DNA from: Candidatus Yanofskybacteria bacterium RIFCSPLOWO2_01_FULL_42_49
GTDB lineage: Bacteria; Patescibacteriota; Minisyncoccia; 2-02-FULL-40-12; GWA2-44-9
Direction of reading: 5' to 3'
Assembly: GCA_001795615.1 (NCBI GenBank)
Contig: MGKI01000014.1
Location: 5,380 to 69,379, forward strand
Length of the DNA: 64,000 nt
Below are positions 2,089 to 62,691 of this stretch, one piece after another (position 1 is the first letter of the stretch; each line of letters starts with the position of its first letter). The notes beneath the pieces were generated by a model. That model had not been told where the DNA came from. It worked only from the letters and a program-made list of their open reading frames with translations, and searched no databases. The translations under genes and the position numbers were made by a program.

Positions 2089-3423
2089 TTAAAACATCCA
2101 TCTTTTCTTCTCCCACCGCTGTCCCGCAAACAAAAGTAATATCTTTCTTGTAACAATAGTGGCTGTAAACAAACTCACCAATACCCCTATCCCCAAAGTA
2201 AGCGCAAAACCCTTCACCATTGAAGTGGTAAACATATACAAAACAAGTGCGCCTATCAGAGTTGTAACATGGCTGTCTCGAACGGACAACCAAGCGCGTT
2301 TGAAACCTTCCTCCATGGACTGAGTAAGCGTTTTGCCAGCTTTCAGTTCTTCTCTCATACGGGCAAAAATAAGAACATTGGCATCAACGGCCATGCCCAG
2401 TGAAAGTATAAAACCAGCAATACCGGCCAGCGTTAATGTAACTGGTATCAGTTTATAAAACGCTAAGACAATGAGAACATAAACAACAAGCGCCGCAACA
2501 GAGACTACCCCTGGCAGACGGTAGAAAAGAATCATAAACAACGCAACGGCAATAAGACCGTAGACGCCGGCAACCAGACTTTTGACAAGGGATTCTTGGC
2601 CCAAAGATGCCCCGATTGTCTGTTGAGATATTAATTTAATCGGTACCGGCAAAGCGCCAGAGTTTAAACGAGTAACCAGCAACTTTGCTTCTTGAGGAGT
2701 AAACTTTCCACTTATAACAGCGCTACCGTCCGGAATCTCGGTTTGCACAACCGGTATGCTGATAGGCATACCGTCAAGATATATGGCAACCAACTTCCCG
2801 ATATTCCTTCGTGTTATTTCAGAGAACAGTTCCGCCCCCTCGCCGGTCAACTGTAAACTAACCTGCGGAATGTTGGTTTGGGGATCAAAAACCAACTGCG
2901 CTCTTTCAAGGTGTCTCCCGTTTAGACCGGTAGCTAAAAACGGTTCTTCACTCAGCCGTTCGCCTCTTGATTGCGCATCTAGTATGTCTCTGGTGCCGTC
3001 CGTTTCTTCTTTAAACTCAAGAAATGGCGTTTCGCCAATCAATTGAATAGCCTGATTGACATCGCTTATGCCCGCCAGTTCAACTATCAGACGATCACTT
3101 CCGCTCACTTGCACCACCGGTTCGGAAACACCAAAAAAGTTGACTCTTCTTTCCACCACATCTCTGACGCCCTGCATAGCATCCGCTGCGTTAAGATCGC
3201 CAACTTGATTTAAGTCGGCTTCATATACCAAGTGCGTACCACCGAGCAAATCCAGACCGAGACGAAACGGAGGAAGTTTCCAGTTTCTAGTTTCCAGTTT
3301 CCAGTTTAAAAAACCCGCGGTTTTTTCCACGCCTTGCGGGTAGACAAAGACCAACAAAAAAAGAGAAGCAACAATCAGAGTTATTAGAAAATATGAATTT
3401 TTCACTAAAGAGTAATTAAACAT
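2089..3423 (-). CDS. secD: protein translocase subunit SecD
   Basis: 444 aa with an N-terminal TM segment, a large periplasmic domain and C-terminal 6-TM SSD-type domain; adjacent to secF. Confidence 0.85.
   Translation of the reverse strand: MFNYSLVKNSYFLITLIVASLFLLVFVYPQGVEKTAGFLNWKLETRNWKLPPFRLGLDLLGGTHLVYEADLNQVGDLNAADAMQGVRDVVERRVNFFGVSEPVVQVSGSDRLIVELAGISDVNQAIQLIGETPFLEFKEETDGTRDILDAQSRGERLSEEPFLATGLNGRHLERAQLVFDPQTNIPQVSLQLTGEGAELFSEITRRNIGKLVAIYLDGMPISIPVVQTEIPDGSAVISGKFTPQEAKLLVTRLNSGALPVPIKLISQQTIGASLGQESLVKSLVAGVYGLIAVALFMILFYRLPGVVSVAALVVYVLIVLAFYKLIPVTLTLAGIAGFILSLGMAVDANVLIFARMREELKAGKTLTQSMEEGFKRAWLSVRDSHVTTLIGALVLYMFTTSMVKGFALTLGIGVLVSLFTATIVTRKILLLFAGQRWEKKRWMF
3281..3312. 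repeat. heptamer tandem repeat (AGTTTCC/AGTTTCT) inside secD
   Basis: tttccagtttctagtttccagtttccagttt encodes NWKLETRNWKLP in the SecD periplasmic domain. Confidence 0.55.
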
Positions 3424-10132: not shown

Positions 10133-10777
10133 CTATTTTTTATAAATTTCAGATGAAATTCTTTCTACCGCTTCAACTGGGTTGGCCGACTTAATAACGG
10201 GTCGGCCAATGACAAGAAGATCGGCCCCCAATTTAACTGCTTCCAAGGGAGTCACAGTACGGCCTTGGTCATCTTTTATATTGTACCATTTTGGGCGAAT
10301 CCCCGGAACAACTTTTAATCCCCTAAAATTCTTAAGATAGTTGAGTTCATGCGCAGAGCAGACCACGCCATCGAGTTTAGCTTTTTTAATATCCACGATT
10401 AACTTCAAAAATTCCTTTTTACTTACGGTATTTTTGGAAGTAAGGATGGTCACTCCAAGTATTTTGGCTCGACGAGCAGCCTTTTTAGACGCTTCCATCA
10501 TTTCCACTCCTCCGACAGCGTGAACAGTTATTAAGTCGGCCCCTGCTTTTTCCAAACGAGCAACGGAACGGGCCACCGTTGACGGAATGTCGTGCAGTTT
10601 AGCGTCAGCAAAAACCTTGCCGAATTTTTTGAGCTTTTGAATTATTTCTCCGCCTTCGACAGAAAATAGCAAGTCGTTGACCTTAAATCCCCAAACATTA
10701 TTTTTTAATTTTGCCGCAATTTTCAGAGCTTCTTTAACAGACACCCCATCAAGAGAAAGAATGATCTTACGCTCCAT
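10133..10777 (-). CDS. pyrF: orotidine 5'-phosphate decarboxylase
   Basis: [11 protein letters not shown]...KLHDIPSTV...VIGRP motifs typical of PyrF. ATG at rc 10775-10777 is preferred over the GTG at 10807, which would overlap secA. Confidence 0.8.
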
Positions 10778-13706
10778 GACACTTTTTATACTTTTTTCCG
10801 CTTCCACAGGGGCAGGGATCGTTCCTGCCTACGCTACCAAATTCATTATTCATGATTCCTGATTCATTTCTGTGCACAGGTTCATTTATAACGGACTGAT
10901 GTTTGTGAGGTCTGATGTCGGGCTTGCCCTCCATGGCTTCAGCGACGGAGGGTCTTTGTTCTTCCATCTTTGTCGGTCGCGGTTGCTGTATTAACGAAAC
11001 TTTAAAAATAATGTTAGCAACTTGAGCTTCAATGGCTGAGGTCAGCTGTTGGAACATTTTTTGCCCTTCAATTTTATATTCAACCAGAGGATCTCTTTGG
11101 CCGTAAGCGCGTAAGCGAACCGAATCGCGGAGATACTCCATCGCTTCAATGTGATCCATCCACAGTTCGTCTATCGTTCTTAAGAGGACCAACTTCTCCA
11201 ATTTTCTCATGTCTTCTTCGCCTACTTCTTTTTCTTTTTCCTCATATTTTTGATAAACGAATTCCAACACTTCTTTTTTTATCTCTTCCTTTTCTTTTGA
11301 TTCGTAATTCGTAATTCGTAATTCGTAATTCGTTAGAGCTTTAACACTTTCTTCAATTTCTTTAATATTCCACTCATAATTAGAGCCTTGGGTATGAAAA
11401 TCAACAATCTGGCTTATTGTATTCTCAATAAAGTTTTGAATTTTGAGTTTTGAATTTTGAGTTTGTTTAGAGTTTAGAGTTTCGAGTTTAGAGTTTACGA
11501 TTTCTCGCCTTAGCCGATAAATCGTCTCGCGGTGCTTATTCATCACATCATCGTACTCAAGCACATATTTTCTTATGTCAAAATTGTGGCCCTCTATCTT
11601 TGACTGCGCCTGTTCAATCGCGCGAGAAATAAATCTGTTCTCAACTACGTCATCATCACCGACACCAAGTGTCTCCATAATATTATGAAGTCGGTCGCCG
11701 CCAAACACCCTGATAACATCATCTTGAGTAGAAACGAAGAACTGCGATGAACCGGGATCGCCTTGCCGTCCGGCGCGGCCACGAAGCTGGTCATCTATCC
11801 GTCTTGCTTCGTGCCGTTCTGTGCCAATAACATGGAGACCTCCGACTTCGCGAACCTTGTTCGCTTCGTCGGGCAAAGCAGGATTGCCGCCAAGAATAAT
11901 ATCAACTCCGCGGCCGGCCATATTAGTTGCGACCGTTACCGCGCCAAGCCGTCCGGCTTGAGCGTGCAGTTCCGCTTCTTTTTCATGCTGTTTGGCGTTT
12001 AACACATTGTGAGGAATGCCGTCTCTCGAAAGCATCGCTGACAATAATTCGTTCTTTTCTATGGATACCGTACCAACAAGCACCGGCTGGCCTTTCTCGT
12101 GTTTTTCCTTTACTTCTCTGACTACCGCCCGAAATTTCCCCTCTTCATTTTTGTAAATCCTGTCTGGCATATCTTTTCTTACCAGCGGTTTATTCGTCGG
12201 CACTTCAACAACATCAAGACCATATACTTTGTGAAATTCTTCAGCAGATGTTCGGGCGGTACCGGTCATGCCGGCGAGTTTTTTGTATAAACGAAAATAG
12301 TTCTGGAATGTTATCGTGGCGAGAGTTCTGGATTCTTTTTGTATTTTCACTCCTTCTTTCGCCTCAACCGCCTGATGAAGCCCCTCGGACCAGCGCCGAC
12401 CCGGCATTAACCGTCCTGTAAATTCGTCGACAATTATTACTTCCTTTCCGCCGGAGGCGGATCCGCCTCCGGCGGAAACCACATAGTCGCGGTCTTTTTT
12501 AAATAAGACCTGCGCTTTAAGCGCCTGCTCAAGGTGATGGACATGCCTTACTCCTCCTTCGTTGTAAATGTTGCTTATACCCAGCGCTTTTTCCACTTTT
12601 TCTATCCCTTTCTCGGTAATAGACACCGCTTTTAATTTTTCGTCTAGATTATAGTCTTCGTTCTCAACAAGCCGCGGAGCGATACGGGCAAATGTTTCAT
12701 ATAATTTACCGGAGTCCTCGTCAGGCGCAGAAATTATAAGAGGAGTTCTTGCTTCGTCAATCAAAATACTGTCGACTTCATCAACTATTGCAAAGTTATG
12801 CATTTGTTGCAGGTCTTTAGTATTTTGAATTTCGGATTTTGAATTTGGAATTTGTTTAGGATTTAGGATTTGGGATTTAGGATTTTCGCTTCGCAATTGA
12901 ACCATTTGCGAAGCGTCATAGGCCATATTGTCGCGCAAATAGTCGAACCCCAACTCGTTGTTCGTACAGTATGTAATATCAGCCGCATAGGCCTCCTTGC
13001 GACCAACCGGCCTCAAAAACTCGTGAACAACCTTAAAACTTCCTAGGGTGTCTCTTGTCTCATCAAGTTTAGAGTTTTGCTTGCCCGCCGAAGCTTTAGC
13101 GAAGGCGGGGTCATTTGGTTTTTTGTTTTCATTGGAAATTGAAAATTGGAAATTGGAAATTCCACTTGCTTCTTTGTTTGTCTCGCTATGGCTTGGATCG
13201 TATAGATACGAGCTATCGTGATTGATACATCCCACAGTAAGTCCGAGCAAGTGGTAAATCTGTCCCATCCAGGCCGTATCGCGGCGGGATAGGTAGTCAT
13301 TCACGGTTACGATGTGAACTCCTTGTCCGGCAAGCGCGTTCAAATATGCCGGCAATGTGGCAACTAAAGTTTTCCCTTCACCAGTTTTCATTTCGGCAAT
13401 CTTGCCCTGATGCAAAACAATGCCGCCCATCAACTGAACGTCAAAATGCCGCTGGTTAAGCGTCCGTTTGGCCGCTTCGCGAACCGCCGCAAATGCTTCG
13501 GGCAGAATATCGTCCAACGACTCAATGGCTCCGTCATTGAGTCGTTCATTGAGTCGTTGACGAAATTCTCCCGTTTTCGCCTTTAACTCCTCGTCTGACA
13601 GTTTCTCAAATTCCGGCTCAAGCGAATTTATCCGGTCTATGACCGGCTGAAGCGACTTAATATACCTAGCATTAGCGTCCCCGAATACTTTACCTAGTAT
13701 TGACAT
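10767..13706 (-). CDS. secA: preprotein translocase ATPase SecA (expanded, 979 aa)
   Basis: Canonical SecA N-terminus, DEAD-like motor, and C-terminal zinc finger [14 protein letters not shown]. It contains several low-complexity and GC-palindrome insertions (see findings). Confidence 0.95.
11283..11508. repeat. tandem heptanucleotide repeats inside secA (AATTCGT x5; GAATTTTGAGTTTT/TTTAGAG-type array)
   Basis: Direct reading: ttcgtaattcgtaattcgtaattcgtaattcgt, and gaattttgagttttgaattttgagtttgtttagagtttagagtttcgagtttagagttta. These encode [15 protein letters not shown] and [22 protein letters not shown]. Confidence 0.65.
12447..12476. repeat. perfect 30-bp palindrome (tccgccggaggcggatccgcctccggcgga) inside secA, in frame
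   Basis: Verified identical to its own reverse complement. It encodes [10 protein letters not shown], inserted where E. coli SecA has KDG. A near-copy lies between genes at 22459-22486. Confidence 0.7.
12822..12893. repeat. tandem heptamer-type repeats inside secA (GAATTTG/GGATTTA array)
   Basis: tttgaatttcggattttgaatttggaatttgtttaggatttaggatttgggatttaggatttt encodes [23 protein letters not shown]. Confidence 0.6.
13055..13170. repeat. composite in-frame element in secA: AT-rich heptamer arm, GC-rich hairpin, AT-rich heptamer arm
   Basis: The first arm is agtttagagttttg. The GC-rich hairpin is cccgccgaagctttagcgaaggcgggg (13081-13108). The second arm is ggaaattgaaaattggaaattggaaattcc. Together they encode [34 protein letters not shown]. 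Confidence 0.6.
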
Positions 13707-13894
13707 AAATACCTGTTTATTATAGGTTATCAGCGGATTTATTACAAATAAAGGGCAGCGTGTGCTTCCTAAAATTAAAAAGGCGTCTGTACTTTTTTAT
13801 CTACTTTTTATTGTAACGCTAAAGTCCGTTTTGTTTCTGGTGTTTTTCTTAAGTATTTTCTTCTCTTAAATCTTTGAGCAAATTTTCCAAAAAA

Positions 13895-13923
13895 TTGACA
13901 CAGAACTAAAGCCGTGCTATCAT
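13895..13923 (+). promoter_or_regulatory. sigma-70-like promoter TTGACA-17-TATCAT upstream of the 13962 ORF
   Basis: TTGACA at 13895-13900, a 17-nt spacer, TATCAT at 13918-23. The -10 element sits in the loop of a hairpin gccgtgc/gcacggt (13911-13933) followed by TTTTT. SD AGGGAGG lies before the GTG at 13962. Confidence 0.4.
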
Positions 13924-13961
13924 AAGGCACGGTTTTTGGTTCGTTCAAAAGGGAGGTTATT

Positions 13962-14207
13962 GTGGAGTTTGCTGCCGTTCAAGAAGTCAAAGAGTGCAAA
14001 TCACAGGATGATGTGAATGAATTACTACGCCAGGGAAATTGGAAGTTACTGGCGGTAAAAGTTGAAAAGGTTAAAAAACCAGTTGGGAAAGAGAGGGTGG
14101 GAGTAGATGCAGTTTCTGACTGGGCTAATGGCCAAAGATGGTGGGATAGATATGAGATTAAGTACGAAGAATGCTTAGAATCTACTTATGTACTGGGTAG
14201 GTTATAA
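13962..14207 (+). CDS. hypothetical small protein (81 aa)
   Basis: ORF with a good SD and GTG start, a promoter upstream and its own terminator downstream. No recognisable domain. Confidence 0.4.
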   Translation: MEFAAVQEVKECKSQDDVNELLRQGNWKLLAVKVEKVKKPVGKERVGVDAVSDWANGQRWWDRYEIKYEECLESTYVLGRL

Positions 14208-14218
14208 AATCTGTTTTC

Positions 14219-14247
14219 CTTGCCGACTATGTCGGCTTTTTCTTTTT
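14219..14247 (+). terminator. intrinsic terminator
   Basis: gccgac-tat-gtcggc hairpin followed by TTTTTCTTTTT. Confidence 0.55.
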
Positions 14248-14311
14248 ATCCCCAATATCTCTGGAAACGCTAGGAGTCAGTTGTCGTGATAATTTTCTTG
14301 AAAAAGAAGAT

Positions 14312-14572
14312 ATGCAAATTCCCGGCAAAGTAGTAAATATTTGGTATTCAAAAAACACTAAAGTTGTACAGGTGAAGATAGATCTGGGCCTGGAAACATC
14401 AAGAGGAAACAGGTATATTCAAGGTCTTTTCGAATTTACTGATGAATATTTTGGAACCCTAGACCCTAAGCATGGAGATTGCGTATCGGTTTGGGCAGGC
14501 CTTTACAAGCATGGGGAAACAGTTATTTATACAAATCGCAATCTTACTCCTGGCCCTACCCAATGTGAGTGA
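14312..14572 (+). CDS. hypothetical small protein (86 aa)
   Basis: ORF between two terminator-like hairpins. No recognisable domain. Confidence 0.4.
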   Translation: MQIPGKVVNIWYSKNTKVVQVKIDLGLETSRGNRYIQGLFEFTDEYFGTLDPKHGDCVSVWAGLYKHGETVIYTNRNLTPGPTQCE

Positions 14573-14596
14573 TTAGCGCGGCATTTCTGCCGCTCT

Positions 14597-14630
14597 GTGT
14601 CCGCCGAAGCTTTATGTGAAGGCGGATTTT
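14597..14630. terminator. GC-rich hairpin between convergent genes (bidirectional terminator; member of the GC-rich repeat family)
   Basis: tccgccgaagctttatgtgaaggcgga followed by TTTT. It is related to the copy inside secA at 13081-13108. Confidence 0.45.
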
Positions 14631-15018
14631 ATTTCCTGGTTTTTCTTGAGAGATCCACTTTTTTGCTTTTAAACTTTTGGATTTGTCTTTGAAGTTCATT
14701 CTTTACATCAACAATCGCGTTGCGCAGATCCTCATGCTGGCAAGTTGCCCGCAAGAGTTGACCGCCCAGTTTTAAGTTAACCTCGGCATAGAATATTCTA
14801 CCGGAACGATGATGTTTTGACGGCAACCCGATTTCAACCCTTGCTTCCATTGGCTCGCCGAAGCCTTGTCGCTGACGCTCCATAGCTTTAGCGACGGAGC
14901 GGCGAAGGCGGCTAGGGCCTCCGCCTAAAAATTTTTCCAATCCCCCTATTTTGTCCTCAATAAAAACTTCCAAGGGCCCGTCAAGGGAAATATTTTTAGT
15001 CGTTATGATTAATTTCAT
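14629..15018 (-). CDS. hpf: ribosome hibernation promoting factor (HPF/RaiA short form) with an internal ~25-aa insertion
   Basis: N-terminus MKLIITTKNISLDGPLEVFIEDKIGGLEKF and the C-terminal half align to sigma-54 modulation/HPF proteins. The GC-rich segment 14868-14945 encodes the extra GGGPSRLRRSVAKAMERQRQGFGEP. Confidence 0.75.
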   Translation of the reverse strand: MKLIITTKNISLDGPLEVFIEDKIGGLEKFLGGGPSRLRRSVAKAMERQRQGFGEPMEARVEIGLPSKHHRSGRIFYAEVNLKLGGQLLRATCQHEDLRNAIVDVKNELQRQIQKFKSKKVDLSRKTRK

Positions 15019-15133: not shown

Positions 15134-16462
15134 ATGAACGGAAACGGCAATGGGTATCAGGAAAAACCCAAACATAAATTTTTATTTGTATCGTGGGAAG
15201 CGTTGAGCGGAGATTTGGCGTGGAAAATAAAAAATGAGGGACACGAGGTCAAGTGCTACATAAAAGATTCCACCGACGAATACGACGGACTCATTGAAAA
15301 AATAGACGACTGGAAAAAATATGTTGAGTGGGCCGATGTAGTTGTCTTTGACGATGTCGGATTCGGCAAAGAAGCTGAAGCCTTGCGCAAGGCAGGTAAA
15401 GCCGTCGTCGGAGGAAGCATTTACACCGACCGCCTCGAAGAAGAGCGAGAGTTCGGCCAATCGGAAATGAAACGACTCGGCATGTTGACTTTGCCTTCTT
15501 GGGACTTTGACGACTACGACAAAGCGCTCCAGTTCATAAAAGAAAACCCCGGACGATATGTATATAAGCCATCGAGTTTTACATCGATTAATTTATTTCT
15601 GACAGGCGACTTGAAAAAAGGACTGTCGTTCACCGGCAAGGAAGAAGACGGAAAAGACTTATACGAAATAATCGAACAGAACAAAAAAGTCCTAAGCCGG
15701 AAAGTAAAACAGTTCCAGCTGCAAAAATATGTAAACGGCGTGGAAGTCGGGGCATCGGCATTTTTCAACGGAGAGAAATTTATTACCCCGATATTGGTTG
15801 CCTTTGAACATAAGCGTCTTTTCCCGGGAGAACTTGGTTCTATGACGGGAGAAATGGGCACATCCATGTTCTGGTCTGAGCCGAACAAATTATTTAAAGA
15901 AACAACGGGCAGGATGGAAGAAGACCTTAAAAAATCCGGTTATGTCGGTTACATAGACATTAACTGCATAGTCAACGGGAGAGGAATTTACCCTCTTGAA
16001 TTTACATGCCGATTCGGTTATCCGACGATCAGCATTCAACAGGAAGGAACATTGAGCGAATGGGGTGAATTTTTATATGCTCTAGCCAACCACAAAGACT
16101 ACCAGCTTAGAACTAAACGAGGATTTCAGATAGGAGTCGTCTGCGTGGTACCGCCATTCCCCTATCATGATCCGACCCAGATGGAAATATACAAAGACCT
16201 GTCAATCCTTTTTAAAAAGCCGGGCCTGGAAGGCATCCACCTTGGCGATGTAAAAGTAATCGACAACATCTGGCGGGTTGCCGGAAACAGCGCTTATGTC
16301 TTGATTGTCACAGGAAGCGGATCAACCATGGAAGAGGCCCGCAAACAGGCCTACTTGAGGATAGAGAATGTAATCTTAGTTAACATGTTCTACCGCACTG
16401 ATATCGGAGCGGGCTGGGGAGAAGATAGCGACAAGCTCCAGACTTGGGGGTATTTATATTAG
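15134..16462 (+). CDS. ATP-grasp enzyme, phosphoribosylamine--glycine ligase (PurD) homolog
   Basis: Motifs resembling PurD: ALSGDLAWKI (cf GGREHALAWK), FEHKRLFPGELGSMTGEMGT (cf DHKR..GPNTGGMG), PLEFTCRFGYP (cf IEFNCRFGDPE). No other pur genes are nearby. Confidence 0.6.
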   Translation: MNGNGNGYQEKPKHKFLFVSWEALSGDLAWKIKNEGHEVKCYIKDSTDEYDGLIEKIDDWKKYVEWADVVVFDDVGFGKEAEALRKAGKAVVGGSIYTDRLEEEREFGQSEMKRLGMLTLPSWDFDDYDKALQFIKENPGRYVYKPSSFTSINLFLTGDLKKGLSFTGKEEDGKDLYEIIEQNKKVLSRKVKQFQLQKYVNGVEVGASAFFNGEKFITPILVAFEHKRLFPGELGSMTGEMGTSMFWSEPNKLFKETTGRMEEDLKKSGYVGYIDINCIVNGRGIYPLEFTCRFGYPTISIQQEGTLSEWGEFLYALANHKDYQLRTKRGFQIGVVCVVPPFPYHDPTQMEIYKDLSILFKKPGLEGIHLGDVKVIDNIWRVAGNSAYVLIVTGSGSTMEEARKQAYLRIENVILVNMFYRTDIGAGWGEDSDKLQTWGYLY

Positions 16463-18078: not shown

Positions 18079-18212
18079 AGCCCGCGAGAATTTAAAATTT
18101 AAAAATCAAAATGAAAAATTACAATGTAAAATCTAAAATTTTCTGATTTCTGACTATTTTTACATTTTGAACTGTCATTTTACACTTTGATATTTACATT
18201 TTACATTACAAC

Positions 18213-22380: not shown

Positions 22381-22560
22381 AATCGCGCCCTTAGCGTTCT
22401 AATCTCTAAATCCTAATTTCTAATCTCTAATAATCTCAAAATCCTAATTTTCAAAATTTCCGCCAGAGGCGGATCTGCCTCCGGCATGACAAAATGTTTT
22501 GGATTTTGATATTTGATATTGTTTAGAGTTTAGGGTTTAGAATTTAGGATTTTATCTTTA
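22381..22560. repeat. MITE-like intergenic element: AT-rich heptamer-repeat arms in inverted orientation flanking a GC-rich near-palindrome
   Basis: The arms are taatctctaaatcctaatttctaatctcta... and ...gtttagagtttagggtttagaatttaggatttt. They flank tccgccagaggcggatctgcctccggca (22459-22486), a 2-mismatch copy of the perfect palindrome inside secA. Confidence 0.5.
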
Positions 22561-30784: not shown

Positions 30785-31798
30785 ATGGCGAAAACAAAAA
30801 ACAAGACCGCTTTAATTTTCGGTATCACCGGTCAAGACGGTTCGTATTTAGCTGAAATCCTTTTGAAAAAGGGATATGTTGTGCATGGCGTCGTGAGACG
30901 GGCTTCAACTTTTAACACAGCAAGAATAAATCATCTCTATCAGGATCCACACAATAAAAGCAGGAAACTTTTTCTGCACCACGGAGACCTTGCCGACGCT
31001 GGCACAATAAGAAAAATAATTAATAAAGTTAAACCGGAAGAGGTCTACAACCTTGCCGCACAATCGCATGTTAAAGTCTCGTTTGAAATTCCTGAATACA
31101 CAATGGACATTACCGGTAACGGGGCGTTGAGAATTCTTGAAGCACTAAGGGATTTCCAAACAGAAACAGGGGGAAAAGTTAAATTCTACCAAGCATCATC
31201 TTCGGAAATGTTTGGCGCAGCTCCCCCGCCCCAAAATGAAAAGACGCCATTCATACCCCAAAGCCCCTACGGCGCAGCCAAGGTTTTCGCTCACAATATG
31301 ACGAACCTCTACCGCGATGCTTATGGACTTTTTGCTGTAAGTGGAATACTTTTCAATCACGAATCACCACGACGAGGGGAAACATTCGTAACACGAAAAA
31401 TCACCCGTGGCATTGCCAGAATAAAAGCCGGTTTGGACAAAAAATTATACCTCGGCAACCTGGACGCTAAGAGAGATTGGGGACATTCCCCTGAATTCTG
31501 CGAAGCCATGTGGCTAATGATGCAACAGCCCAAGCCAAATGACTTCGTTATCGGCACAGGCGAGACGCACACTGTGAGAGAATTCGTTGAACTGGCTTTT
31601 AAAGAAGCCGGTTTGGGTAGTTGGAAAAAATATGTTGAAATTGATCCTCAATACTACAGGCCAGCTGAAGTAAATATTTTAGTCGCCGATACCAGAAAGG
31701 CAAAAAAAGTATTGAAGTGGCAACCAAAAACCAAATTCAAAGACCTTGTGAAAATAATGGTCTGGAATGACATTAACGAATTTAAAGTTAAAAATTAA
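30785..31798 (+). CDS. gmd: GDP-mannose 4,6-dehydratase
   Basis: [33 protein letters not shown] (YxxxK), and the characteristic [12 protein letters not shown] loop. Confidence 0.9.
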
Positions 31799-31886
31799 AA
31801 GAGTAAAGTTAAAAGTCAAGGTTTTAATTTAAAGATTTTAAAAACTTATAATTTAAAACTCTAATTTTACACTTTCTATTTTAAAT

Positions 31887-60561: not shown

Positions 60562-62691
60562 ATGACAGGGTCTAAGATGCTCAAAGTCATTCAGCCGAAT
60601 GAAAGTCCGCCGTATCCGATAGCAACTAAACCTCCGCCCAGAAAAATAAAGATAGGGCCGATCCAGCTTAACAACAGTTTCTCTGGACAGTGCTATTTAC
60701 CCCTTTCGGTTGGAATGCTGCAGGCCTATGCCCAAAAGCATTTATCTTATGCCGATCATTATGAATTCCTGTTGGCCGTTTATGACTTCGCGCCGATTTC
60801 TAAAATCGTAGACCAGCTAAGCAATGCCGATGTTTTGGCTATAAGTTTATATGTCTGGAATTTTGAGAATTCAATGGCTATCGCCAGAGAGTTCAAGAGT
60901 CGTTATCCGGACAGGTTGGTGATAGTGGGAGGGCCGCATGTGCCGGACAGCAAAAAACAATTTGCGAGAATAAAGAAAACCGACCCTAAGCCGGATGAGT
61001 TGAAGCGCAAAAGAATGGGGATGACCGAAAAATTTCACAGAGACCATCCTTATATTGACATAGCCGTACACGGCGAAGGTGAAAAAGTATTTAGATACAT
61101 ACTGGAACAACTGGCAATTGACGGCTTGAGAGATAAAACAAAACTGCCCTCAGTAAGTTATCTTGAGCATGACGGGGTATTCCATCACAACCCCAAACTC
61201 GAACGGATGCATGACCTATCCGAAGTACCGTCTCCGTATCTGGAAGGCGTATTTAACCCCCTCATGGATGCCCATCTCGACCAAAAATGGATTGCAATGT
61301 GGGAAACCGACCGGGGTTGTCCATATCAGTGCACTTATTGCGATTGGGGCGGAGCCACCGAAGACAAAGTCAATCCATTTCCCTTCGACAGAGTATCCCG
61401 AGAAGCCGTTTGGTTCGGCAAACATAAAATACCTTATATTTTTCTGGCCAATGCTAATTTCACTATTCTAAAAATAGATGTTGAAATAGCAAGAAAATTA
61501 GCCGAGGTTAAGGCAACATATGGTTACCCTGAAGGTATATCCGTTCAGAACGCCAAAAACCCCAAACCCCATGCCTTTGAGGCTCTGACTATCCTTGAAG
61601 AAGCCGGACTGAACAAAGCCACTGTTATGTCCATTCAATCTAAGAATTATGATACGCTAAAAGCGGTCCGCAGAGAAAACATGAAACCAGGAGAATATAA
61701 GGAAATCCAAAGTAGATTAAGAGAAAAGGGTGTTTACACAATGACTGATTACATTCTTCCTATGCCAATGGAAACATATGACAGCTTGCTAAATGGAATT
61801 GCCGCTATTATATCAGAGGGTCAACATGATAGGATTCAATTCAACAATTTGTCTATATTGCCAAACGCTGAAATGGGCGATCCAGAATATCAAGAACTTT
61901 ACGGAATGGATATGGTCAGAACGTCAATAACCAATATTCACGGCAAGAAAAGCGATTCCGTCAGTGGCGTTGAAGAAATGCAGGACTTGGTCATCGCGAC
62001 CAATACCATGCCCCGCGAAGAATGGGTCAAAGCCAGGACATTATGCTACGTGGTCGCGTTTACTTACTTCAACAAGCTTCTCCAGATACCGACAATGATT
62101 CTGCATGAGGTCTACGATATTCCTTATCGAGATATTTTTGAAACATTGATGGAAAAGCCGAAGCAAACTGACAACTTTCCAGTTTTTCGGGAAATATTGG
62201 ACTTCTTTCACTCTTTCTCACGAGGTATGCAAGACGGAACGCAGGAAGAATTCTTCCACTCTTCGGAATGTCTGGATATATTGTGGCCACCAGATGAGTA
62301 CGCGTTGATTAAATTATGCCGAGAAAACAAGCTTATAGAATTTTATAAAGAAGCGGAACAAATGTTAAAGCAACTTGTGGAACCGAATAAACAAGTAGAG
62401 CCCCTCATTGAAGCCGTGAAACTCAACCAGTCGCTTATCAAATTACCATTCCAGACCAATGACTTAGAAATAAATCTATCATACAATATTTGGGAAATAT
62501 ATCAAGCCGCTCGTCTGGAGAAGAAAATTAAACTGAAACAAGAGAGCCATCGACATACTATCGACCGAACCAGCGAACATTGGGATTCGTGGGAAGAGTG
62601 GTATGAAAAAATGGTCTGGTGGTGTAATCGCCGAGGCGCCTATCTTTACGGAAATAAAAATCCTGTTCCAGACATTGAAGGACATCACTAA
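60562..62691 (+). CDS. class B radical SAM enzyme (cobalamin-binding domain + radical SAM), 709 aa
   Basis: B12-binding domain (LVIVGGPHVPD); radical SAM cluster CPYQCTYC; long C-terminal extension. Confidence 0.8.
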   Translation: MTGSKMLKVIQPNESPPYPIATKPPPRKIKIGPIQLNNSFSGQCYLPLSVGMLQAYAQKHLSYADHYEFLLAVYDFAPISKIVDQLSNADVLAISLYVWNFENSMAIAREFKSRYPDRLVIVGGPHVPDSKKQFARIKKTDPKPDELKRKRMGMTEKFHRDHPYIDIAVHGEGEKVFRYILEQLAIDGLRDKTKLPSVSYLEHDGVFHHNPKLERMHDLSEVPSPYLEGVFNPLMDAHLDQKWIAMWETDRGCPYQCTYCDWGGATEDKVNPFPFDRVSREAVWFGKHKIPYIFLANANFTILKIDVEIARKLAEVKATYGYPEGISVQNAKNPKPHAFEALTILEEAGLNKATVMSIQSKNYDTLKAVRRENMKPGEYKEIQSRLREKGVYTMTDYILPMPMETYDSLLNGIAAIISEGQHDRIQFNNLSILPNAEMGDPEYQELYGMDMVRTSITNIHGKKSDSVSGVEEMQDLVIATNTMPREEWVKARTLCYVVAFTYFNKLLQIPTMILHEVYDIPYRDIFETLMEKPKQTDNFPVFREILDFFHSFSRGMQDGTQEEFFHSSECLDILWPPDEYALIKLCRENKLIEFYKEAEQMLKQLVEPNKQVEPLIEAVKLNQSLIKLPFQTNDLEINLSYNIWEIYQAARLEKKIKLKQESHRHTIDRTSEHWDSWEEWYEKMVWWCNRRGAYLYGNKNPVPDIEGHH

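Follow-up and report, generated by a model that had tools for sequence, protein, structure and literature searches.

We found that the secA gene of a 64,000-nucleotide (nt) stretch of Candidatus Yanofskybacteria DNA (the whole stretch is referred to as the window) carries a discrete 30-nt hairpin unit within a loop built of AT-rich heptamer repeats. Comparison with relatives makes it likely that the unit is a nested insertion and a member of a widespread repeat family. Units of this kind, 30 nt long, stop-free and frame-preserving, have been added precisely and repeatedly to permissive loops of SecA and HPF, and the family appears to behave as a very small, non-autonomous mobile repeat that preserves the reading frame. 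In the sequence of events that we propose, AT-rich heptamer repeats would first have expanded in a permissive surface loop of SecA, and the discrete GC-rich unit would more recently have been inserted into the heptamer tract, with no target-site duplication. Because the unit is 30 nt long and stop-free in four of the six frames, it adds ten residues and leaves the gene unbroken. It would persist where the protein tolerates a loop, and would have no function of its own in secA.

The hairpin unit in the NBD1 loop of SecA

The features of the locus are as follows:
10767-13706, minus strand: secA, an open reading frame (ORF) of 979 amino acids (aa)
13068-13178, minus strand: the whole lineage-specific NBD1 loop, from protein alignment A1
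13066-13079, minus strand: two heptamer-like units (CAAAACTCTAAACT, QNSKL), the 'left arm', from the alignment
13080-13109, minus strand: the 30-nt hairpin unit CCCGCCTTCGCTAAAGCTTCGGCGGGCAAG, from a clean indel, a score of 51.6 bits with covariance model R1, and its fold
13134-13163, minus strand: heptamer array with AATTTCC/AATTTTC as its coding-strand units and ISNFQFSIS as its translation, from Tandem Repeats Finder (TRF)

The window SecA is 100% identical to the SecA annotated from Candidatus Yanofskybacteria (Parcubacteria, Candidate Phyla Radiation or CPR) and has 979 aa, as compared with 877-930 aa in relatives. We aligned it with homologues (alignment A1, 39 homologues), and codons were threaded for the four relatives with DNA. 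In the alignment, all of its insertion sites fell in gaps of the solved Bacillus subtilis SecA (1TF5); there are six such sites, comprising two units of the family described here (family 1), one unit of a second hairpin family (family 2) and heptamer arrays. The loop that bears the hairpin unit is situated between the Walker A and Walker B regions of NBD1 and has 75 residues, against 10 in B. subtilis. It is about 37 aa longer than in minimal orthologues such as P0008, which have nothing there; ten residues are the hairpin unit and the remainder is low-complexity sequence derived from heptamers. Neighbouring genes across 22 kb of synteny showed almost no indels of at least 5 aa. An AlphaFold2 model of SecA made from A1 (mean pLDDT 54.7, pTM 0.32) was too poor to judge the inserted loops, and the 1TF5 alignment was therefore used instead. 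A second, independent assembly from another sample was 99.98-100% identical over 61 kb with zero indels, and the hairpin and heptamer structure is thus not an assembly artefact. The first 41 nt (10767-10807) of the OMP decarboxylase ORF that lies downstream (10133-10807) are shared with the secA ORF, possibly through a miscalled GTG start.

On the coding strand, CCCGCCTTCGCTAAAGCTTCGGCGGGCAAG consists of a 26-nt hairpin and a 4-nt CAAG tail. It encodes SecA residues 200-209 and folds as ((((((...((....))...)))))).... with an energy between -12.9 and -14.7 kcal/mol and z values from -2.2 to -2.4. The SecA proteins of the closest relatives (P0002, P0003, P0006 and P0007) are 80-84% identical and already have the heptamer-derived peptide (GISNSKFLISKQ...). 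In the codon alignment they are short of exactly 30 nt, CCCGCCTTCGCTAAAGCTTCGGCGGGCAAG, between AAT GAC | CAA AA, and the indel was seen against secA of L001, L002 and L003. The same alignment revealed no target-site duplication, and it leaves the position of the junction ambiguous by no more than a single base. The array at 13134-13163, ggaaattgaaaattggaaattggaaattcc, was detected by TRF as a period-7 repeat (13131-13161, 4.4 copies, 91% matches), and homologous arrays are found in the hairpin-less P0002, P0003, P0006, P0007 and P0018; judged from these sequences, the array is older than the unit. On the other side, agtttagagttttg is present at 13066-13079 and aligns to CAA AAT AAA AAA CTT in P0003. 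The existence of relatives with the heptamer loop and no hairpin suggests that the hairpin entered a pre-existing heptamer tract.

An initial annotation of the window had read a 116-bp segment of this loop as one composite insertion, a GC-rich hairpin between two AT-rich heptamer arms, resembling a Rickettsia palindromic element (RPE) and sharing its architecture with an intergenic element at 22381-22560. The sequences that it quoted are present (13066-13079, 13080-13109 and 13134-13163) and in frame within the ORF at 10767-13706, and the right arm is a heptamer array by TRF; the left arm has only two heptamers. That a 116-nt element of this layout, RPE-like or akin to a MITE (miniature inverted-repeat transposable element), was transposed into secA as a single piece would be consistent with the composites of arm, hairpin and arm that we found in intergenic DNA (window 22399-22556, L185, the L003 intergenic region and the viral loci L139 and L153). 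At this locus, however, the proposal is contradicted by the close relatives, which have the arms without the core and differ by exactly the 30-nt unit, so that the segment is nested and arose in at least two steps. Moreover, no arm-to-arm pairing was found at the secA site, where the 146-nt region gave z = -0.5 (RNA) and -0.8 (DNA) relative to shuffled sequences, whereas the intergenic element (22385-22560) pairs arm to arm with z = -6.45. Nor do the two share a core: that of the intergenic element, at 22457-22485, belongs to the other hairpin family, whose secA copy lies at 12445-12478. Target-site duplications, which the initial annotation had suggested looking for, were not found at the secA sites, and the segment has no terminal inverted repeat. 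The other secA and hpf units lack heptamer arms, and P0046, P0027 and P0050 have the unit at the same SecA loop, again with no arms. We consider a single composite insertion very improbable.

Copies in the window and across genomes

A repeat search, a pattern search and R1 identified three further family-1 copies in the window:
10923-10952, minus strand: a second secA unit, CCCTCCGTCGCTGAAGCCATGGAGGGCAAG, in the C-terminal linker, from a clean insertion and an R1 score of 35.7 bits
14854-14916, minus strand: the hpf insert, a unit within an older unit, from hpf comparison and an R1 score of 30.5 bits
14596-14626, minus strand: a copy in the intergenic gap of two convergent genes, differing by a 1-nt indel, from an R1 score of 25.1 bits (E 1e-3)

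A 14-nt pattern, RGCTTYAGCGAMGG, had three matches in the window where 0.14 were expected. With R1, the scores were 51.6 bits for 13080-13109 (E 3e-10), 35.7 for 10923-10952 (3e-6), 30.5 for 14872-14901 (5e-5) and 25.1 for 14596-14626 (1e-3), and all four copies share one orientation. The initial annotation had pointed to related GC cores at 10921-10948, 14597-14626 and 14868-14945, and the pattern count together with E values of 3e-6 to 1e-3 bears this out. It had also named what would overturn its reading, namely cores no more similar than random GC-rich codons and orthologues carrying homologous peptides; we found that the cores are related beyond chance and that the closest orthologues, in both the SecA and the hpf comparison, are without the core.

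The C-terminal secA unit is a clean 30-nt insertion between AGA | CCC GAC ATC relative to L001-L004. In hpf, an inner 30-nt unit, CGCTCCGTCGCTAAAGCTATGGAGCGTCAG (14872-14901), is nested in a unit of a sister subfamily, CCGCCTTCGC...CAAGGCTTCGGCG. Intermediate stages survive at both genes: L003 and L004 have no unit in hpf, L002 has the outer 30-nt unit only and the window has both, while in SecA the heptamer loop alone is seen in P0003, P0006 and P0007. The gap between hpf and secA is only 14-46 nt in L001-L003, and the window has an insertion of about 0.9 kb there; the intergenic unit at 14596-14626 is located at its hpf-proximal end, and the region between the two genes (13707-14628) contains two small ORFs (13962-14207 and 14312-14572) with no Pfam match. 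Among 120 SecA homologues we found 14 unit-derived peptides at no fewer than five distinct sites, and P0007 has the unit in reversed orientation at another site. An exact match to the 30-mer of 13080-13109 was also found in L035, another Patescibacteria genome, in an ORF other than secA.

A degenerate 20-nt pattern, searched against one genome per species, matched at least 120 loci. Since about 140 chance matches were estimated for this pattern, the number of loci says nothing, and the flanks are decisive. In 125 matches, conservation ran from position -4 (Y, C 94%, C 93%, K) to +25 (G, R, C, A, R, G), and the sequence outside was random; the conserved span is thus exactly 30 nt, the same as the indels. 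The consensus, 5'-YCCKCC KTC GC TRAA GC WYG GMGGR CARG-3', describes an imperfect 26-nt hairpin with a 4-nt tail. Both stem pairs left free by the pattern and filter covary (CG 39 / UA 37; GC 51 / UA 21), and none of 500 shuffles reached the observed covariation score. Among the matches listed in this species-representative scan, the unit was present in at least ten bacterial phyla, the hosts including Patescibacteria, Bacteroidota, Verrucomicrobiota, Alphaproteobacteria, Acidobacteriota, Planctomycetota, Nitrospirota, Omnitrophota, Elusimicrobiota and Desulfobacterota. The alphaproteobacterial hosts include cultured Bradyrhizobium, Mesorhizobium and Parvularcula, among them Bradyrhizobium sp. 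WSM1743, Mesorhizobium sp. SOD10 and Parvularcula maris, and several matches lay on megabase contigs. The unit was also detected in 51 viral contigs, against about 0.05 expected by our own estimate; a 30-mer query of a plasmid collection returned only partial matches, to Thermus plasmids (E 0.1). Copies cluster locally, mostly in direct orientation, and units nest in units near the apex, at 18|19 (L004 secA, L021 and L094), 12|13 (L044) and 11|12 (window hpf and L003). In Bacteroidota and other genomes (loci L024, L076, L078, L080, L083 and L121), a tRNA gene often has the unit 0-6 nt from its 5' or its 3' end.

In SecA a single frame, PxFAKAxxGK, accounts for 13 of the 14 copies, and the similarity might be thought to stem from selection for a peptide rich in Ala, Lys and Gly, or from GC-rich codon usage. 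This explanation is already contradicted by the occurrence of the same DNA between genes, in reversed orientation and in four frames with unrelated peptides. Coding copies at loci with GC <0.52 were found to occupy each of the four stop-free frames, with both orientations represented (PxFAKAxxGK, 12; xAxALAKAG, 9; PPSLKLWR, 3; LRSFSEGG, 3), and the 30-nt boundaries are the same for coding and non-coding copies. Together, the intergenic, reversed and four-frame copies and the sharp boundaries exclude selection at the peptide level and chance GC-rich codons, an explanation to which we give hardly any credence.

It also seems conceivable, though quite improbable, that the hairpin is a functional cis element under selection (for instance one that terminates transcription, stabilises mRNA, causes pausing or binds a protein) and that the coding copies were co-opted. 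The covariation of the stem shows that the hairpin is maintained, and some copies adjoin tRNA genes or lie in gaps between convergent genes, as at 14596-14626 in the window. On the other hand, intergenic copies showed no terminator-like placement, occurring alike in convergent, tandem and divergent contexts, and 27 of the 68 copies at loci with GC <0.52 (about 40%) lay within ORFs of at least 200 codons. No T-run follows the unit on its 3' side, as an intrinsic terminator would require, and copies are found within ORFs and divergent intergenic regions. A search of 9-24 kb of the window against Rfam 15 (E <= 1) gave no relevant match and two chance ones, and close relatives differ in whether they have the unit.

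Several observations weigh against insertion of a mobile unit, and we collect them here. Insertion is read from a comparison of the sequences of relatives, and individual sites may possibly be ancestral, with precise loss, or may be alleles moved by recombination. The same codon position, at the GAY|CAA junction, is occupied in P0047 SecA (72% identical) by a unit that is 27/30 identical, and the C-terminal site is common to P0026 and P0048 as well, three lineages in all. The neighbouring gene, encoding a GARS (purD-like) protein (15134-16462), is 97% identical to L001, against 80-84% for other genes, which suggests recombination between populations and a tract of recent recombination or transfer at that gene. 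The copy number is modest, R1 detecting zero copies in 33 kb of two relatives and four in the 64 kb of the window, all within 4 kb. No mobilising enzyme was found, the 64-kb window having no transposase, reverse transcriptase or integrase. The replication-strand bias of the unit relative to GC skew was weak (68 versus 47, p = 0.06), unlike that of IS200/IS605-type elements. Finally, repetitive extragenic palindromes (REPs) co-evolve with the species' own REP-associated tyrosine transposase (RAYT), whereas the unit is near-invariant across phyla.

An ancestral unit, with precise loss from most lineages or transfer by recombination of secA alleles, is opposed by the absence of the unit from the four closest relatives and from all minimal orthologues. 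Also, the copy in the window SecA (P0001) agrees with the family consensus at every position and has an exact counterpart in an unrelated gene of L035, so that it is more likely to be young. Many different sites are occupied across SecA homologues. We regard ancestry or allele exchange as unlikely, and retain insertion of the unit as the preferred explanation. A Y1 transposase near L003 secA was considered as mobiliser and rejected, as it is flanked by a different, AT-rich hairpin. This gene (L003 5690-6450; Y1_Tnp, IS200/RAYT-like) is flanked by, and contains, copies of that hairpin (GTTAAAAGCTCGGTTTTTAAC), and the two constitute a REP-like system of their own in this related Yanofskybacteria genome.

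The second hairpin family and the heptamer arrays

The remaining features of the window are these:
12445-12478, no strand assigned: a perfect family-2 palindrome, TTTCCGCCGGAGGCGGATCCGCCTCCGGCGGAAA, in the SecA PPXD beta-turn, 93% identical to 22457-22485
22399-22556, no strand assigned: the intergenic composite, inverted heptamer arms around a family-2 core (22457-22485), from repeat search, TRF and fold
12816-12885, minus strand: a 90-nt in-frame heptamer insertion (AAATCCT-type) encoding a 22-residue peptide just before the Walker B motif, from TRF
11432-11497, minus strand: an in-frame heptamer array (AAACTCT-type) encoding a 21-residue peptide, from TRF, repeat search and alignment
11300-11333, minus strand: an in-frame heptamer array, (ATTACGA)n, encoding a ten-residue peptide, from TRF and alignment
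10841-10867, minus strand: an array of (CATGAAT)n heptamers, in frame within the C-terminal linker, from TRF and alignment

The family-2 palindrome in secA folds at -31.4 kcal/mol and encodes ten residues; it is not found in relatives, except for P0116, which has it at the same turn. The palindrome, flanked by conserved TTTT and GGAaa, was seen on at least 120 contigs from metagenomes, and the intergenic composite has a near-identical twin in metagenome locus L185. The PPXD beta-turn carries three different GC palindromes depending on the lineage, including the 30-nt family-2 unit (P0001 and P0116). At the same turn, a 12-nt form, CCGTCAGCTGAC (PSAD), present in L001 secA among others, completes a palindrome, TCCGTCAGCTGACGGA; its distribution is patchy (P0002, P0003, P0010-12, P0048, P0062 and P0094).

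Period-7 arrays number 17 in the window, as compared with 1.5 expected from local shuffles, with other periods at background; they are a genome-wide habit of this Candidatus Yanofskybacteria organism. Five of the arrays are in frame in secA. The insertion at 12816-12885 is not found in L001-L004, while the (ATTACGA)n array at 11300-11333 is common to P0003 and P0006, P0007 having an AAACTCT array of equal length instead. A 31-nt array, AACTCTAAACTCGAAACTCTAAACTCTAAAC (window 11440-11475), is identical in the secA of P0007 (L003), at different sites, the P0007 array being the one that stands there instead of (ATTACGA)n. We rejected this identity as proof of mobile 'cassettes' and take it as only suggestive; a shared T-to-G variant removes an in-frame TAA, so that convergence is possible, and the exchange in P0007 could be either replacement or convergence. 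In-frame (GACAAGN)n arrays were seen in L003 secA (P0007 region D1) and L002 secA (P0006 C-terminal region). Their sequence corresponds to the 3' tail of the hairpin unit (GGACAAG), which hints that some heptamer arrays may have been seeded from tails. A period-7 array lay at most 100 nt away from 12.8% of units, against 2.9% of random positions, and one viral contig (loci L139 and L153) has two units inside (AATATTC)n arrays.

Elsewhere in the window, secD (2089-3423) contains an (AGTTTCC)n array at 3275-3307, in frame near the SecD N-terminus (NWKLETRNWKLP) and matched only partly in L002 SecD; this array and one at 61557 are the two further period-7 arrays within ORFs. Seven more are intergenic (15044, 22401, 22505, 32808, 41477, 44812 and 62691). 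At 18089-18207 and 31779-31885, intergenic inverted pairs of AT-rich heptamers with no GC core would form long AT hairpins.

Movement of the unit and comparison with known repeats

Possibly, the unit moves in trans, in the form of a single strand that folds into a hairpin, and inserts where DNA is exposed or single-stranded, with hairpin apices and slippage-prone heptamer tracts as preferred targets. A process like that of REP/RAYT or other HUH-type systems may be responsible, or some other route; any specific account of the way it moves is, in our estimation, doubtful. Somewhat less tentatively, we suggest that an undescribed class of ultra-small mobile DNA may be represented by the unit together with its sister families and the heptamer arrays linked to them. 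Such a class would be frame-preserving and self-nesting, would be spread over at least ten bacterial phyla and their phages, would be moved by a mechanism that involves no element-encoded or species-specific transposase, and would keep supplying the streamlined CPR genomes with new loops in their essential proteins.

For annotation, low-complexity CPR peptides such as PxFAKAxxGK are to be seen as translated repeat DNA and not as functional motifs. Frame-preserving repeats let reduced genomes gain protein loops, and secA alone has six such sites. Identical 30-nt boundaries across phyla and viral contigs are hard to square with REP/RAYT co-evolution, and so widespread an identical unit points to some widely shared way of moving very small DNA. 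The cultured carriers open the mechanism to laboratory testing. In the literature on the DNA of the unit, on its peptides, on SDRs (small dispersed repeats) and heptamer repeats, and on RAYT, REPIN (REP doublets in inverted orientation) and RPE in CPR, we found no description of the 30-nt family.

RPEs, in the work of Ogata et al. from 2000/2002, are reportedly about 100-150 nt long and restricted to Rickettsia, with intergenic copies as well and a surface peptide that is tolerated. The unit resembles them in being a palindrome in frame in essential genes, absent from orthologues, with a tolerated peptide and additional intergenic copies. It differs in being 30 nt long, found in many phyla and self-nesting, and in its host, Candidatus Yanofskybacteria; as RPEs are described, size and host set the two apart. 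The 'RPE-like' of the initial annotation holds for an in-frame tolerated palindrome in secA and hpf; family membership does not, the unit being three to five times shorter, and the 116-nt segment is not the single long palindrome of about 100-150 nt that defines an RPE. In-frame insertion of RPEs into genes is cited in PMC3733652.

REPs are short imperfect palindromes with a conserved GTAG or CGTC tetranucleotide (PMC3733652, PMC3116915); CGTC repeats have no dedicated transposase, occur in several phyla and have a stem that starts with AT (PMC3116915, PMC3733652). In common with these families, the unit is an imperfect GC-rich hairpin with an unpaired end tetranucleotide (CAAG/CTTG), shows no target-site duplication and has occasional in-frame intragenic copies. 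However, its tag is CARG/CYTG, neither GTAG nor CGTC, and its stem has no AT start. Unlike REPINs, it is inserted as single 30-nt units and not as inverted doublets, its neighbours being mostly direct. No RAYT flanked by units was found in the 64-kb window, and the Y1_Tnp of L003 has the different hairpin at its flanks. MITEs have terminal inverted repeats and target-site duplications, whereas the flanks outside the 30 nt are random and unduplicated.

Among heptamer systems, TAACTGA repeats are common to Beggiatoaceae, Cyanobacteria and Bacteroidetes and have no known mechanism (PMC4679880), and GGGAATC repeats occur in Xanthomonas (PMC4692102). Like these and the cyanobacterial STRR arrays, those of the window show a period-7 excess, sometimes inverted pairs, and occurrence in distant lineages. 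In contrast to them, the arrays described here are AT-rich, comprise several unit sequences and are frequently in frame, five of them in secA.

The closest match in behaviour is with cyanobacterial small dispersed repeats (SDRs), as these are described. In the work of Elhai et al. from 2008 (Genome Res 18:1484), which is cited in PMC4390886, SDR4-6 are reportedly hairpin-forming mobile repeats of 21-27 nt in Nostoc and relatives, mostly outside genes, and are said to be inserted precisely, with no duplication, and to nest within each other and within tandem repeats of heptamers. The unit is likewise tiny, precise, and nested in heptamers and in itself; unlike SDRs, it is 30 nt long, occurs in CPR, many other phyla and viral contigs, and is often in frame in housekeeping genes. 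A fixed 30-nt length, compatibility with coding, self-nesting, and spread across phyla and viruses are unusual traits among tiny palindromic mobile repeats. We conclude that the unit is akin to RPEs, REPs and SDRs in the way it works and, judged by their descriptions, appears to be a member of none of them.

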